Origin: Gammaproteobacteria bacterium
GTDB taxonomy: Bacteria; Pseudomonadota; Gammaproteobacteria; JAJFKG01
NCBI GenBank assembly: GCA_965116795.1
Contig: OZ220716.1
Span: forward strand, 2,383,833 to 2,447,832
DNA length: 64,000 nt
Direction: 5' to 3'
This document shows positions 9,222 to 23,899 of the stretch, piece by piece (within the stretch, counting starts at the first letter, position 1; each line of letters starts with the position of its first letter). The translations under genes were made by a program, and so were the position numbers. The notes below the pieces were generated by a model. The model did no database searches. It was not told the DNA's origin and was given only the letters and a program-made list of their open reading frames with translations.

Positions 9222-9890
9222 TCAATCAAGTTGAATTCCATTTTTGTTTTTTTTAGCGAAACAGTTAAATTGTACGATGGGCATTGTCATAAAATACCGT
9301 TTATACGGTATTGGAAAATTGGGATCAACTGATTTCTTGTCAGCCACTATCTTGAATCCAATTAATTGGTAAAATGACAATGCTATTGTGTTATTTTCCC
9401 AGACATAGAGTGCAATAGTTTTATACATTCCTCTCTCTAGAAATACACTAACGTGTGATAACAACCATTTTCCAATGCCACGATGGCGATATTGTGTATC
9501 AATATAGATAGTATCGATATACAAAGCATTCTTCATTGGCTTTATCTGATAAAAACTAGCCAACGCCCTTCTCTTATTATCATCTGTAATCAAACTAATT
9601 TGCGGTAGAAAATCAGATAAGTCATAACAACATAGCAAACCAATCACTGATTGTTCATTCTCAACAAGCAAACAATTGGGTAATGATAATGCTGAATTAC
9701 TTCTCATTAGTTCTAACGCCAATAATTTATGCCGTGGGATCAACGCATCTTCTAATACATAATCACAAATACCACCGCTGGCTGCTATCATGAATAATGC
9801 GATGATATCCTTATCGTGTTTATTAGCCCATCGCAGCATGATCATATCAATACTGAAATATTGCCACACCGAATACGGCACCAACTCCAA
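9222..9890 (-). CDS. GNAT acetyltransferase
   Basis: YRHRGIGKWLL acetyl-CoA motif A; NTIALSFYQLIGF motif B. Confidence 0.85.
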   Translation of the reverse strand: MELVPYSVWQYFSIDMIMLRWANKHDKDIIALFMIAASGGICDYVLEDALIPRHKLLALELMRSNSALSLPNCLLVENEQSVIGLLCCYDLSDFLPQISLITDDNKRRALASFYQIKPMKNALYIDTIYIDTQYRHRGIGKWLLSHVSVFLERGMYKTIALYVWENNTIALSFYQLIGFKIVADKKSVDPNFPIPYKRYFMTMPIVQFNCFAKKNKNGIQLD

Positions 9891-10767
9891 CGGTCGCCAT
9901 CATATAGTAATCTCCTTTAGTTAATAGTTTGTTGTCGATTGCTGTTGCTAGATTAATTAACGGATCGGCATTAAAGCAATGTGCCGTTATCGCAATATTA
10001 TCTAGAAAAATCTTCTTGGCTAATATACCAGCATAGTTAGCAAATGTCCGCCAACATTGAACATTGACATTATGCGGGAAAATTAATTTGATCTGAGAAA
10101 ACGTTAAATTTGATTGTTGTAATGCAGCCTTCATTACACGCAGCATAGTTTGATTAAACAACTTACCAAATTCAGCGACTTCTTCGATTGGCATCCATAC
10201 CCCTTTAGCATATTTTCCATTGATTGTTATCTTCAATGCAATCAATTTATTATTAGCCTGTTCATTTTTATTAATAAGCACTGCTGCCGCCGCATCACTG
10301 GTGATAGTAATATTAGGCAACACTCTATTTTGTTCAGTAAACACCGATTCGGCAATAATCATCAACGCATATTCATCATGTTGTAATAAGCATTTAACCA
10401 ATTCAAAGGTTCGCAACACTGAGGCACATTTATTCATGCTAATTGCCATCGGTATTGCATTTGTCAATTGCAAGCTATTAGCTGTATTTCTTACTAACGA
10501 CAGTGCAAATGGTGAAACAACCGGTGTTGTTCTTGGTGATATTAGATAGCGAATTTTATCTTGATTAACCGTCGTAACCAGTGGAGATGCCACCTTTACT
10601 AACATTGCTTGCATTGATATGTCAGCAAATCGAATCGCATCAAGGCCATAAAATCGAGTATAAATATGCATTTGATTAGCTGACAAACCATAATCCTGGT
10701 ATGTTTGATTCAATCGTTTAATACGTTGTGGAAGATAATAATTAACGCCTATTACATTAATTGACAT
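9847..10767 (-). CDS. KAS III (FabH)-like acyltransferase/condensing enzyme
   Basis: MNKCAS catalytic Cys, FPHNVN His, AHCFNAD, VGVGAVFG. Confidence 0.82.
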   Translation of the reverse strand: MSINVIGVNYYLPQRIKRLNQTYQDYGLSANQMHIYTRFYGLDAIRFADISMQAMLVKVASPLVTTVNQDKIRYLISPRTTPVVSPFALSLVRNTANSLQLTNAIPMAISMNKCASVLRTFELVKCLLQHDEYALMIIAESVFTEQNRVLPNITITSDAAAAVLINKNEQANNKLIALKITINGKYAKGVWMPIEEVAEFGKLFNQTMLRVMKAALQQSNLTFSQIKLIFPHNVNVQCWRTFANYAGILAKKIFLDNIAITAHCFNADPLINLATAIDNKLLTKGDYYMMATVGVGAVFGVAIFQY

Positions 10768-11705
10768 GTTATCCTCCCGATATCACAAGCAACCATACCC
10801 ATTGTGCCTTTATGTGATAACACAATCGACGGTATTCTTAATCCTGGATCGGTATTATACAACTGCTGTAATGCTGTTGTGTTATCTGCAGATAATGCAG
10901 AAGCGATTGCGTCAAATGCGTTTAATTGTTGGTTATCTGTTGGAGCAACAGTTGGCCCGTCAAATAACATATATCCCCATAAATCTCCTGGTAACATTTC
11001 TAGGGTTAATCTAGCAGCAAGTTCGTGTAATAATTTATTACGGATTGCAAATAAGCCTCGCCTATTTTGAAACAATCCAATAGCAAAATCAGTGGTCGGC
11101 ACTGATTTATTCCTAACGTAATTCCATGCGGTTTCTGCCGGGATAAATTGATGATCATTAAGCTGACAAGCATTGATATGTTTGGCTGTTGGATTGCGCC
11201 GTTTAAATGCCTCGGTTAACAGGACATCAGCCCAACACCATGTTGATGTATTGTGATCATAAAATTCTACGATGACATGATCCATGTTAAATGCAGCAAT
11301 TGGATGATAGTTAATAAAACCAACTCTCAATCTGGCTGGGATTTGCATTTGACGTAATAATGCCACATATAACAACGATGCCCCTCGACAAGTCGTGATC
11401 AATTTTTCAGACAACTTTCGTTTTGTAGACCATGATATATACGCAAGATTATTGATTGTGGTTAACATTGACATTGCATCTCTGAGATACACTTCCTGTT
11501 GCCGATTGTTAGCAAACTGGTAATTACCTAATTGACATTCAGCTTCGTGTACCGCTAAGTGTTGAGCTATTTCAAATAAAGCATAAGGACAGTTTGGTAA
11601 TTTATGCAGTTTATTCTGATCAAACTGACTGATATCGCTGTAATGGCTATGCTGGCGATACAGTGTTAATTTATTGATACATTCTCTAACAGCTGCCACG
11701 ATCAC
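10752..11705 (-). CDS. Transglutaminase-like protein
   Basis: TCRGASLL (Cys), PARLRVGF, DHVIVEFY (His), WADV (Asp). Confidence 0.85.
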   Translation of the reverse strand: MIVAAVRECINKLTLYRQHSHYSDISQFDQNKLHKLPNCPYALFEIAQHLAVHEAECQLGNYQFANNRQQEVYLRDAMSMLTTINNLAYISWSTKRKLSEKLITTCRGASLLYVALLRQMQIPARLRVGFINYHPIAAFNMDHVIVEFYDHNTSTWCWADVLLTEAFKRRNPTAKHINACQLNDHQFIPAETAWNYVRNKSVPTTDFAIGLFQNRRGLFAIRNKLLHELAARLTLEMLPGDLWGYMLFDGPTVAPTDNQQLNAFDAIASALSADNTTALQQLYNTDPGLRIPSIVLSHKGTMGMVACDIGRITCQLM

Positions 11706-22320: not shown

Positions 22321-22583
22321 TCTTCCTCTGCTAACGTCAATTGGCTATTCACATACTTGACAACAGTTTCTACTGTGTCTAAGTCATTCGCATCCAATGA
22401 ATCCGGATCCACAATAAAGTTGTCTATATTGTCTTCCAATGACATTAAGAAGGATAATGTGCTCATTGAATCTAGTCCTAAATCATCTTTTAACCTAGAT
22501 TGCAGCGAAATCGCGTGTGTCTCATCAAGATTAAGTGTCGCCATAATTGACTGACAGACAATATCAAATACGTTATTGTGCAT
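22317..22583 (-). CDS. Acyl/aminoacyl carrier protein
   Basis: 88 aa, acidic, DLGLDSM phosphopantetheine site; AAGGAA RBS. Confidence 0.92.
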   Translation of the reverse strand: MHNNVFDIVCQSIMATLNLDETHAISLQSRLKDDLGLDSMSTLSFLMSLEDNIDNFIVDPDSLDANDLDTVETVVKYVNSQLTLAEEE

Positions 22584-22597
22584 GTTATTATTCCTTA

Positions 22598-23899
22598 CTA
22601 ACTATTAAATATATTACGTTGTTTGCCGTTTATATCATCAAGCGAATCGCGCTGACGTATTACGTAAGCCTGCTGTTGATACACCATCACTTCGGCAGGA
22701 AAGCCATGACTTAGAAAATACACTGGAGATGCTGTTGGCCCATAAGCACCCGATTGATGAATACCGATCAAATCGCCGACTTGTGTTTTAGGCAAATTAA
22801 TCGACTTAGCAATTAAATCATTAGGTGTACACAATGGCCCAGTAATATCGTATTGTTGTGTTACCGTTTGTTGACCGGATAGATTATCAATTGGGAAATT
22901 GCGTTTAACTACACCACCAATCCCCACTGCTGCCATATGACAATGGCTACCACCATCGGTGATTAAAAAGGTTTTTCCTTTGGATTGTTTAATATCGTGC
23001 ACAGTGGTGATGAAACAGCCTGATTCTGCGACTAAGTAACGCCCACTTTCCATAATGATGCGTGTATTGGGATATTGGGTTACATATGATTGAATAATCT
23101 CTTGGAATGCTGTGCCTGATAAGTTAATTGGTTGCTCATTGTCAAAATAGGCAACGCCAATACCACCTCCAATATCAATACACTCAAATTGCAGATCAAA
23201 CGTGTTTTGCAGTTCACTTGCCATTGTTAAGATGTGTTGTGTATTGTCTATAACCGTGTTTATATTTAGTATGCGTGTACCGTTATACACATGGATGCCG
23301 ATTAAGTTAATGTGGGATAATGATGTGAACTGGTTAAACTGAGCAAATACATCTGTTTGATCAATCCCAAATTGAGAGGGTTTGCCACCCATTTTTAACA
23401 GTGCATCTTTTGAGATAAAATCAGGGTTGATACGCACGATCACGTTAGCAGTGACATCAAGCTGCTTGGCTAACTGGTTAATTCTGTTAAGCTCGGCAAA
23501 TGATTCGAATACGACCGCATAAATACCGTTTTGTAAACAATTAATGATGTCTCGATCATGTTTATACGGCCCAACAAAAATGATGTTATGCCCAGGCATA
23601 CCAATGCGCAGCACCGTATCCAATTCGGCAGCAGAACACACTTCAGTCGCTGCACCGCAATCGACTAACAGTTTTACAATCGAGCGATTAGGATTCGCTT
23701 TTAATGAATAAAAAATGTCAACATGTTGACCACAAAAGTGGGTTAATCGTCCATAAGCAAGAGTAATATGATCAGCATCGTACACATAAACAGGAGTACC
23801 GCAGCCATCAACAATCTCCTTAATCGGTATGCCTTGGATATGATCTAAGGTAGCGGTATTGTTCATCTTGTTAGTCTCAGGGTACATGCCCGTTGACAA
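22598..23899 (-). CDS. Fold-type III PLP-dependent decarboxylase (LysA-like; BtrK/VinO type by context)
   Basis: YSLKANPN PLP Lys, GGGIG, ESGRYL, GPLCTPND, GAYG; adjacent to ACP; real start may be MNNTAT. Confidence 0.88.
   Translation of the reverse strand: MSTGMYPETNKMNNTATLDHIQGIPIKEIVDGCGTPVYVYDADHITLAYGRLTHFCGQHVDIFYSLKANPNRSIVKLLVDCGAATEVCSAAELDTVLRIGMPGHNIIFVGPYKHDRDIINCLQNGIYAVVFESFAELNRINQLAKQLDVTANVIVRINPDFISKDALLKMGGKPSQFGIDQTDVFAQFNQFTSLSHINLIGIHVYNGTRILNINTVIDNTQHILTMASELQNTFDLQFECIDIGGGIGVAYFDNEQPINLSGTAFQEIIQSYVTQYPNTRIIMESGRYLVAESGCFITTVHDIKQSKGKTFLITDGGSHCHMAAVGIGGVVKRNFPIDNLSGQQTVTQQYDITGPLCTPNDLIAKSINLPKTQVGDLIGIHQSGAYGPTASPVYFLSHGFPAEVMVYQQQAYVIRQRDSLDDINGKQRNIFNS

Follow-up and report, generated by a model that had tools for sequence, protein, structure and literature searches.

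Several bacterial pathways build a beta-alanyl unit on a carrier protein and desaturate it to dehydro-beta-alanine. Olenamidonin contains (E)-dehydro-beta-alanine, and in its ole cluster a decarboxylase (427 aa), an acyl carrier protein (ACP, 92 aa), a hypothetical protein (296 aa) and two acyl-CoA dehydrogenase-like proteins (ACADs, 234 and 387 aa) are encoded in a row; a beta-ketoacyl-ACP synthase III (KAS III) homologue of 309 aa is proposed to form the amide bond, and EtmH, EtmI and EtmK are named homologues in the ole/aut gene table (PMC11204786). Another compound of interest here, enteromycin, contains a glycine-derived nitronate (PMC9967187). In the afc pathway, the trio AfcQ/AfcK/AfcP, comprising a VinN-type adenylation (A) enzyme, one carrier and a pyridoxal phosphate (PLP) decarboxylase, has been reconstituted in vitro and makes beta-alanyl chains without condensation (C) domains, while AfcL, a KAS III-like protein with Cys, His and Asp, forms a peptidyl-enzyme and passes the chain to an amine; enamides of this type undergo photo-isomerisation (PMC12186527). 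For bolagladin, BolO/BolC/BolN are the proposed trio leading from aspartate to the beta-alanyl carrier, and deletion of BolQ, an ACAD, yields saturated beta-alanine analogues (PMC7756342; PMC7756705). Here we describe an operon of 14 genes in a 64,000-nucleotide stretch of a gammaproteobacterial genome (assembly GCA_965116795.1, contig OZ220716.1, positions 2,383,833 to 2,447,832), below called the window, to which coordinates refer unless stated otherwise. The operon appears to encode a stand-alone (type II) carrier-based line that builds and exports a small N-acyl- or N-aminoacyl-dehydro-beta-alanine (enamide) compound; judging by sequence and analogy, we give this reading a probability of roughly 0.6.

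The operon consists of 14 intact open reading frames (ORFs), all on the minus strand, spanning positions 23899 to 9222. Out of 13 junctions between the maximal ORFs, 11 are overlaps, and two are gaps, 14 bp and 72 bp long. The sole sizeable gap is filled by a palindromic repeat (16789..16860) that overlaps the stop codon of the A1 gene and occurs genome-wide, in 93 BLAST segments including itself. The Pfam matches are a PLP decarboxylase, PP-binding, three ACP_syn_III, Acyl-CoA_dh, MatE, three AMP-binding, an alpha/beta hydrolase, a transglutaminase core and GNAT; the remaining gene, a short ACAD, was assigned with the ESM Atlas. An earlier note, made from the letters alone, had listed 14 co-oriented, mostly overlapping genes with these functions, and both the list and the layout stand. 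It had also stated that a C domain, a modular polyketide synthase (PKS), a phosphopantetheinyl transferase (PPTase) and a regulator are lacking, and neither Pfam nor NCBIfam found any of these among the 14 genes. The single PPTase of the genome lies outside the cluster (G000:1779637-1780377, 246 aa; the best model is HetI, below cut-off). Some of the listed starts are those of maximal ORFs, and ATGs at 23866, 21431, 20793, 18391, 15210 and 9845 are likelier starts. Promoter and terminator scans gave no signal, the former with 61 sites where 71.7 were expected and the latter with 12 where 10.3 were expected, and Rfam had zero matches over positions 8000-26000.

The first gene (22598..23899) encodes a fold-type III PLP decarboxylase by Pfam, with K67 and C357 (maximal-ORF numbering), predicted to convert iso-Asp-ACP to beta-Ala-ACP. 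The closest solved structure is BtrK (E 1e-82), with diaminopimelate decarboxylases at 6e-49 or weaker. The role of LysA was rejected for this enzyme, since BtrK is closer and the genome has a separate and weaker LysA-like paralogue. The next gene (22317..22583) encodes a stand-alone carrier protein of the PP-binding family with Ser39; its identity to the carriers in related loci is 42-51%.

A1 (16841..18406) is a VinN-type adenylation enzyme, and VinN is the top PDB match of its pocket region. With the VinN determinants taken from PMC11253843, D208, K309 and R310 of A1 correspond to D230, K330 and R331 of VinN, whereas Y209 and T278 stand for F231 and S299; K495 is present as well. The predicted reaction is activation of the side-chain carboxyl of L-Asp. 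The pocket code is identical, or differs by one Thr/Ser change, in five aligned relatives from the family, and the amino-binding Asp is present in all three A enzymes of the cluster. The NCBIfam names suggested a fatty acyl-CoA ligase, which was rejected on the pocket residues. The trio of decarboxylase, VinN-type A enzyme and ACP is also seen beside ectoine-synthase-like genes on plasmids of Streptomyces and Rhizobium (L028:17998-27142; L031:17914-21861).

Three genes encode proteins of the KAS III fold. KSb (9847..10767), the core enzyme of this type in the family, has C114, H232, H263 and D268, and KSa (14257..15216), 28% identical to it, has C116, H239, H270 and D275. In both, the Cys and the His of FabH are kept, while the FabH Asn is replaced by a His with an Asp five residues on (His-x4-Asp). 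The four catalytic-site residues of KSb are invariant across 25 aligned sequences. Residues of both proteins fit the Cys/His/Asp triad of AfcL; KSa is a predicted acyltransferase, and KSb is predicted to be an amide-forming one. The KSb model (pLDDT 86.9) has a KAS III fold, and the highest query-normalised TM-score (TMq) among the matches listed is 0.84, for ChlB3. A quick tree places KSb together with the one KAS III that Legionella-type clusters have (SH-aLRT 99), and in it KSa forms a long branch, tentatively apart from the second KAS III of Photorhabdus. KSb also has a distant homologue, likewise with the His-x4-Asp motif, in a hypothetical protein (L037:4701-5624) of the Pseudoalteromonas plasmid pTML1, the plasmid of the thiomarinol cluster.

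The third protein, KSx (21424..22320), matches OleL in position and size and is catalytically dead: the Cys site is occupied by Gly in all 96 relatives aligned (those of 230-330 aa among P0001-P0100, the shorter ones having been dropped). Its model (pLDDT 96.5) has a thiolase fold with TMq of about 0.6, and distant homologues are found in the vfm locus discussed below (hidden Markov model (HMM) E 4e-18 and 2e-11).

KSa and KSb could instead be decarboxylative enzymes forming C-C bonds, similar to PqsBC when combined with KSx, so that malonate extension of a beta-alanyl or glycyl unit would give a cyclic pyridone- or tetramate-like product. PqsB is the inactive subunit of PqsBC, and the cluster likewise has a dead KAS III subunit, with the Cys replaced by Gly; moreover, the active proteins retain two FabH residues, the Cys and the first His, and their top match is FabH. 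However, the FabH Asn has given way to His followed by an invariant Asp, Pfam detects no ketoreductase, cyclase or malonyl transferase in the cluster, and the KAS III of ole is proposed to form an amide (PMC11204786). We regard this alternative as rather improbable.

The ACAD gene (19678..20841, likely start 20793) encodes an acyl-CoA/ACP dehydrogenase by Pfam, predicted to be the desaturase forming the enamide. It is preceded by a gene (20790..21458, likely start 21431) for a short ACAD-like subunit of the C-terminal domain type, the probable partner of the ACAD. This protein has no Pfam match; the ESM Atlas places it in Acyl-CoA_dh_1 clusters with score 0.97, the family being assigned to 49% of the members. 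It can be aligned with its relatives, and its size is comparable to that of OleM (234 aa).

The two other A enzymes are 34% identical to each other. A2 (15203..16768) has an AlmE-like pocket with D205, L206 and C274, and by manual reading it coincides with AlmE at eight of nine visible pocket positions, including both glycine determinants, which in AlmE are L248 and C316 (PMC11253843). The predicted substrate of A2 is glycine. A3 (12651..14264) is a second enzyme similar to AlmE and IdnL7, but its pocket differs from that of A2; the closest PDB chains are 8k4r, 4oxi (AlmE) and 6akd (IdnL7), and we make no substrate call. A pipecolate or proline reading of the A3 pocket was set aside. In enteromycin, a glycine-derived unit is placed on 3-aminoacrylate.

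The MATE transporter (18384..19847; MatE in both Pfam and NCBIfam) is the predicted exporter. Its homologue is present in all six complete related loci, and a weak one in vfm (E 1e-7). The alpha/beta hydrolase (11702..12679) has a weak Pfam match (E 1e-4) but an intact triad of S158, D234 and H262, with the motifs conserved across the relatives; release or trimming is its predicted role. The transglutaminase-like protein (10752..11705; Pfam E 3e-6), with the triad C106, H143 and D160 intact in the alignment with four relatives, is a candidate amide-forming or release enzyme. The last gene (9222..9890, likely start 9845) encodes a GNAT acetyltransferase by Pfam. It has zero BLAST matches in any related locus examined and seems to be an accessory gene, a candidate for self-protection or tailoring.

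Several of these genes would suit envelope decoration as well. In a system similar to AlmEFG or Dlt, glycyl or beta-alanyl residues would pass from a carrier to lipid A, to a polysaccharide or to a surface protein; the MATE protein would act as a flippase, and the transglutaminase would carry out the attachment. The A2 pocket is that of AlmE (D247, L248 and C316), which serves glycylation of lipopolysaccharide; A2 and A3 have high scores against the DltA models, although below cut-off; and the best matches of A1 and the decarboxylase are exosortase-associated families. On the other hand, the cluster has no gene for a glycosyltransferase, for a lipid A acyltransferase or for sorting, and none of the 14 genes encodes a transferase of the AlmG type, AlmG having the role of the lipid A transferase. 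Further, the relatives add RND or FtsX-type efflux genes, and the decarboxylase-ACP-KSx-ACAD cassette adjoins modular non-ribosomal peptide synthetase (NRPS) genes in Streptomyces. We consider envelope decoration very unlikely.

Under the preferred reading, a carrier-based line for an enamide, the following pathway can be proposed, all steps being deduced from sequence and precedent. The ACP would be primed at Ser39 by the single PPTase of the genome, L-Asp would be loaded through its side-chain carboxyl by A1, and the BtrK-like enzyme would decarboxylate it to beta-alanyl-ACP. Acylation of the free amine would follow, with glycine supplied by A2, another small residue supplied by A3 and perhaps an acyl group drawn from primary metabolism; here KSa and KSb would be Cys acyl-enzyme transferases that stand in for C domains. 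The resulting N-acyl-beta-alanyl unit would be desaturated by the ACAD and its short partner, the dead KSx serving as a structural partner, and the product would be coupled or released by KSb, the transglutaminase or the hydrolase. Finally, the MATE protein would export the compound, and the GNAT enzyme may protect or tailor it. The likeliest role of the product is that of a diffusible bioactive molecule directed against competitors, the host cell or kin. The earlier note had proposed a beta-amino-acid unit on a carrier, coupling by non-canonical KAS III-fold enzymes, possible desaturation and export. The VinN residues of A1 and the closeness of the decarboxylase to BtrK argue for the first of these, and the Cys and the His-x4-Asp in place of the FabH Asn for the second; desaturation and export also look probable.

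A number of observations weigh against this reading. The best NCBIfam models are TIGR03098 for A1 and TIGR03099 for the decarboxylase, both exosortase-associated and both below cut-off. Moreover, BtrK acts on glutamyl-ACP, so a gamma-aminobutyrate unit is possible instead of beta-alanine. By E-value, the first-ranked match of KSb is FabH, which is no acyltransferase, and since the FabH His position is kept in KSa and KSb, there is room for C-C extension. In the alignment to medium-chain acyl-CoA dehydrogenase, the catalytic Glu is replaced by Asp in the ACAD (YEGT vs MDGT); Asp is also found in the Legionella copy, and Glu in those from Xenorhabdus, Ralstonia and the metagenome. The cluster genes include none for a dedicated fatty acyl ligase, and the acyl donor is thus unassigned. 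The likeness to ole rests on gene order, size and a proxy cassette, and the carrier loader is different: ole has an ATP-grasp loader and modular NRPSs, whereas the window has the VinN-type A enzyme and, by Pfam, no NRPS. Lastly, decay is seen in two relatives, the ACAD gene being split in P. luminescens (L018:1868-2946) and the MATE gene interrupted in P. akhurstii (L020:6304-8274). The ORF interrupting the latter resembles an IS200 transposase.

Syntenic clusters are found in a metagenome-assembled genome (MAG) of Legionella, in three Photorhabdus genomes, in Xenorhabdus mauleonii and in Ralstonia pseudosolanacearum. In the genome collection, five loci were confirmed out of 162 pattern matches, and the metagenome scan yielded one confirmed locus out of 80; the R. 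pseudosolanacearum locus came from the plasmid collection. With the KSx profile, 88 representatives were obtained at E up to 1e-30 and 322 at 0.001. Ten core genes are present in all six complete loci: those for the decarboxylase, ACP, KSx, short ACAD, ACAD, MATE, A1, one A2-type enzyme, a KAS III and the hydrolase; the short ACAD was detected by BLAST in two of the six, and in the others by position and alignment. The transglutaminase gene is found in five of the six and in a truncated metagenome locus, the exception being the Legionella MAG. Two active KAS III are encoded in four of the six, while neither the GNAT gene nor a second A2-type enzyme occurs in any. Added RND or FtsX-type efflux genes are carried by relatives, and in X. 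mauleonii a short KAS III-like remnant is seen (L016:14129-14377).

At larger scale, two of 400 genomes of the class scored, namely that of the window and a weak one; in the order of the Legionella MAG, this MAG was the only one of 205 genomes; and in the Xenorhabdus family, 12 of 401 genomes scored, two strongly and ten weakly. The cluster was not found in a same-genus genome (90% complete) or a same-family genome (97% complete). Hence the family is rare and patchy, but the cluster is not an orphan, contrary to the earlier note. We found no published study of this gene family in Photorhabdus, Xenorhabdus or Legionella-like bacteria in the literature covered, mostly open-access papers. An unannotated cluster of Burkholderia cenocepacia (L036:14740-24914) contains an ACAD, an ACP, an A1-like enzyme, a decarboxylase, two KAS III and a KSx-like gene; it was not equated with afc in the comparisons made here.

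In the same-genus genome, two sigma-54 regulators, fliA, lpxH, ppiB, gltX and cysS form one run. The cluster occupies the site of the first sigma-54 regulator of this run, and in the source genome that regulator gene lies 0.68 Mb away. The GC content at third codon positions (GC3), calculated for 13 of the 14 cluster genes, is 0.341, against 0.338 for the genome. A recent foreign origin by composition was thus rejected, and we infer an old horizontal acquisition.

Such an acquisition may by now be silent or decaying. The patchy distribution, the broken genes in two Photorhabdus copies and the genomic repeat inside the operon would agree with this; however, all 14 ORFs are open, and every checked catalytic residue is present except in KSx, which is dead throughout the family. 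Moreover, as the cluster matches the genome in composition, its genes have stayed intact through long residence in a genome of 2.45 Mb. A silent relic is the least probable of the explanations considered here.

Weak double matches in the survey of the Xenorhabdus family led to a further related locus (L057/L058), recognised as vfm-type by the exact published vfmO1 and vfmP1 codes in its two variable A enzymes. Eleven of the 14 window genes have homologues in it, with identities of 20-42%: 42% for the decarboxylase, 35% for A1, 29% for the ACAD, 26% for KSb and 20% for the MATE protein, KSx and the short ACAD being matched by HMM. The pocket code of A1 is that of the first A enzyme of vfm. As of PMC9306890, the Vfm signal had not been isolated; a 2023 literature listing agrees, and no structure is given in passages of a paper from 2026 or of a review from 2021. 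Clusters similar to vfm are also found beyond Dickeya, on plasmids of Rahnella and Tritonibacter, with P450 and luciferase-like monooxygenase genes (L027:18007-36751; L030:11858-37182; L055); in that of Tritonibacter, the decarboxylase is fused to the ACAD.

The product may be a Vfm-type cell-to-cell signal, in which a fixed unit derived from Asp is combined with variable amino acids setting the specificity, the regulator being encoded elsewhere in the genome. This functional rival is compatible with the chemistry proposed above. In addition to the eleven homologues in a locus with the published codes, the first A enzyme is constant and the pockets of the second type vary between relatives, as in vfm, and a MATE protein is among the vfm annotations in PMC9306890 (Fig. 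1). However, by Pfam the cluster lacks a two-component system, an AraC regulator, an ABC permease and a PPTase, the adjacent sigma-54 regulator and FliA go with housekeeping genes in a kin genome devoid of the cluster, the identity to vfm proteins is 20-42%, and the A2 and A3 codes are unlike those of VfmO/P. A signalling function is unlikely, although it deserves more weight than the alternatives above.

As a tentative extension of the enamide reading, unlikely when taken as a whole, the clusters may form a compact receptor-less sister family of Vfm in Dot/Icm bacteria, insect-pathogenic symbionts and a plant pathogen, making an enamide directed at the host or kin. The dead KSx, similar to OleL and present in two copies in vfm, would be a hitherto unrecognised, obligatory partner of the desaturase, the transglutaminase would make the last amide bond, and the Vfm signal itself would have a labile dehydro-beta-alanine core. 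If so, this core would be built by the vfm decarboxylase, VinN-type A enzyme, ACP and ACAD pair, which could hint at the structure of the signal.

The source genome (2.45 Mb, 97.7% complete) encodes DotH and DotI and has 51 Ank_2 matches. The Pfam model of DotA had no match in the genome, and its control was likewise silent. Based on DotH, DotI and the ankyrin matches, the bacterium is probably host-associated with an intracellular life, as the earlier note had suggested. Three long ORFs without a Pfam match at E 1e-5 (723, 1692 and 859 aa) and an ankyrin protein lie in the window (106-2277, 28406-33484, 33741-36320 and 56009-56803) and are candidate Dot/Icm substrates. Two more adenylation domains elsewhere in the genome (G000:C1:2208684-2213339) are probably a second NRPS-type locus.

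Shortly downstream of the operon, on the same strand, are genes for a sigma-54 response regulator and FliA. They were rejected as cluster regulators, since the same-genus genome has both in synteny without the cluster. FliA and the FleR-like sigma-54 regulator (6502-8470) are retained, while flagellin and FlhA were not found in the 97.7% complete genome (controls matched in 4 of 14 cases). The same-genus genome keeps both in the same gene run, so they may have a non-flagellar role. Between them and the operon, 26 bp after the GNAT gene, a 174-aa gene (8671-9195) encodes a protein with a signal-peptide-like start and a short beta-repeat pattern. Neither Pfam, nor the rest of the genome, nor the related loci gave a match to it, and it may be co-transcribed with the operon. 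On the other side, a GIY-YIG gene (24291-24710, within 24170-24780) is flanked by a REP-like repeat in direct copies, and this repeat has about 20 matches in the genome; the paralogue of the gene at G000:2162948 is 64% identical. A further gene encodes a glycine-rich-domain-like protein (25011-25574) with a weak Pfam match to GRDP-like and three genome paralogues at 38-41%.

The chemistry proposed here is already known, while the gene family is itself uncharacterised and compact. It links three systems that have been studied separately, ole/aut, afc/bol and vfm, by one cassette, and it highlights a conserved dead KAS III subunit so far unstudied. With 14 soluble or single-transporter genes, against 25-26 in afc and vfm, the cluster is a smaller test bed for the replacement of C domains by proteins of the KAS III and transglutaminase folds. 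AFC-BC11 is reported to matter in zebrafish when intracellular persistence switches to acute infection (PMC13614206); because of this, an intact small-molecule pathway in a Dot/Icm bacterium with a 2.45-Mb genome is of interest.

How the cluster compares with described systems may now be summarised. The window proteins of 433, 88, 298, 222, 387 and 306 aa parallel those of ole, the first five being in the ole order (OleH and the OleJ-N cassette). Homology to the window is also seen in a plasmid cassette of Streptomyces decoyicus that has the ole order, with 45% identity for the decarboxylase, 30% for the ACAD and 29% for KSb, and an HMM match for KSx (E 4e-11). Beyond the ole cassette, the window has two more A enzymes, a second KAS III, the hydrolase, the transglutaminase, the MATE transporter and the GNAT enzyme.

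By enzyme type, the window shares with afc (Burkholderia, AFC-BC11) the VinN-type A enzyme, a sole carrier, the PLP decarboxylase, a KAS III with Cys/His/Asp, an ACAD, the absence of C domains and the number of KAS III-like proteins, three. However, afc has 25 genes against 14, and its fatty acyl-AMP ligase, citrate synthase, O-methyltransferase and desaturases have no counterparts among the 14 by Pfam and NCBIfam, while the afc gene description names neither A enzymes for small amino acids nor a transglutaminase. With the type II sub-cluster BolO/C/N/Q/M/P of bol, the route from Asp to the beta-alanyl carrier, acylation by KAS III and desaturation by ACAD are common; unlike the window, that sub-cluster feeds a four-module NRPS, uses a citrate-derived fatty acid and has a Ser (BolM) or a Thr (BolP) for the catalytic Cys.

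In vicenistatin (VinN/L/O/M/J/K), incednine (IdnL7) and butirosin (BtrI/J/K) biosynthesis, as proposed for the window, a PLP enzyme decarboxylates an acidic amino acid that is bound to a carrier, and aminoacylation by a stand-alone A enzyme follows. The window lacks the modular PKS, VinK-type transferase, BtrJ ATP-grasp and aminoglycoside genes of vicenistatin and butirosin, and the VinM-type pocket (C217/A285/T318 in IdnL7) is not kept, being Leu/Cys/Ala in A2 and Phe/Gly/Ala in A3.

As in the window, vfm has three stand-alone A enzymes, ACPs, KAS III-like proteins that are dead, ACADs accompanied by a short partner, KAS III proteins (22-26%) and a MATE protein. It differs in having 26 genes, with a two-component system, an AraC regulator and an ABC transporter in the locus, none of which occurs in the window cluster, and two copies each of the ACP, KSx-like and ACAD genes. 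Further, vfm has no match to the transglutaminase or GNAT, its hydrolase has no detectable similarity to that of the window, and the A2 and A3 codes are unlike every published VfmO/P code.

The statement in the earlier note that the gene combination was unrecognised holds in part: the logic has been published for AFC-BC11, bolagladin and olenamidonin, and 11 of the 14 genes are common to a vfm-type locus, while in the literature covered, which did not include MIBiG, no characterised cluster has this exact gene set. The window cluster fails a defining feature of each of ole, afc, bol and vfm, and hence is assigned to none of them. Its way of working is that of the dehydro-beta-alanine branches found in ole, afc and bol, and it is related to vfm.

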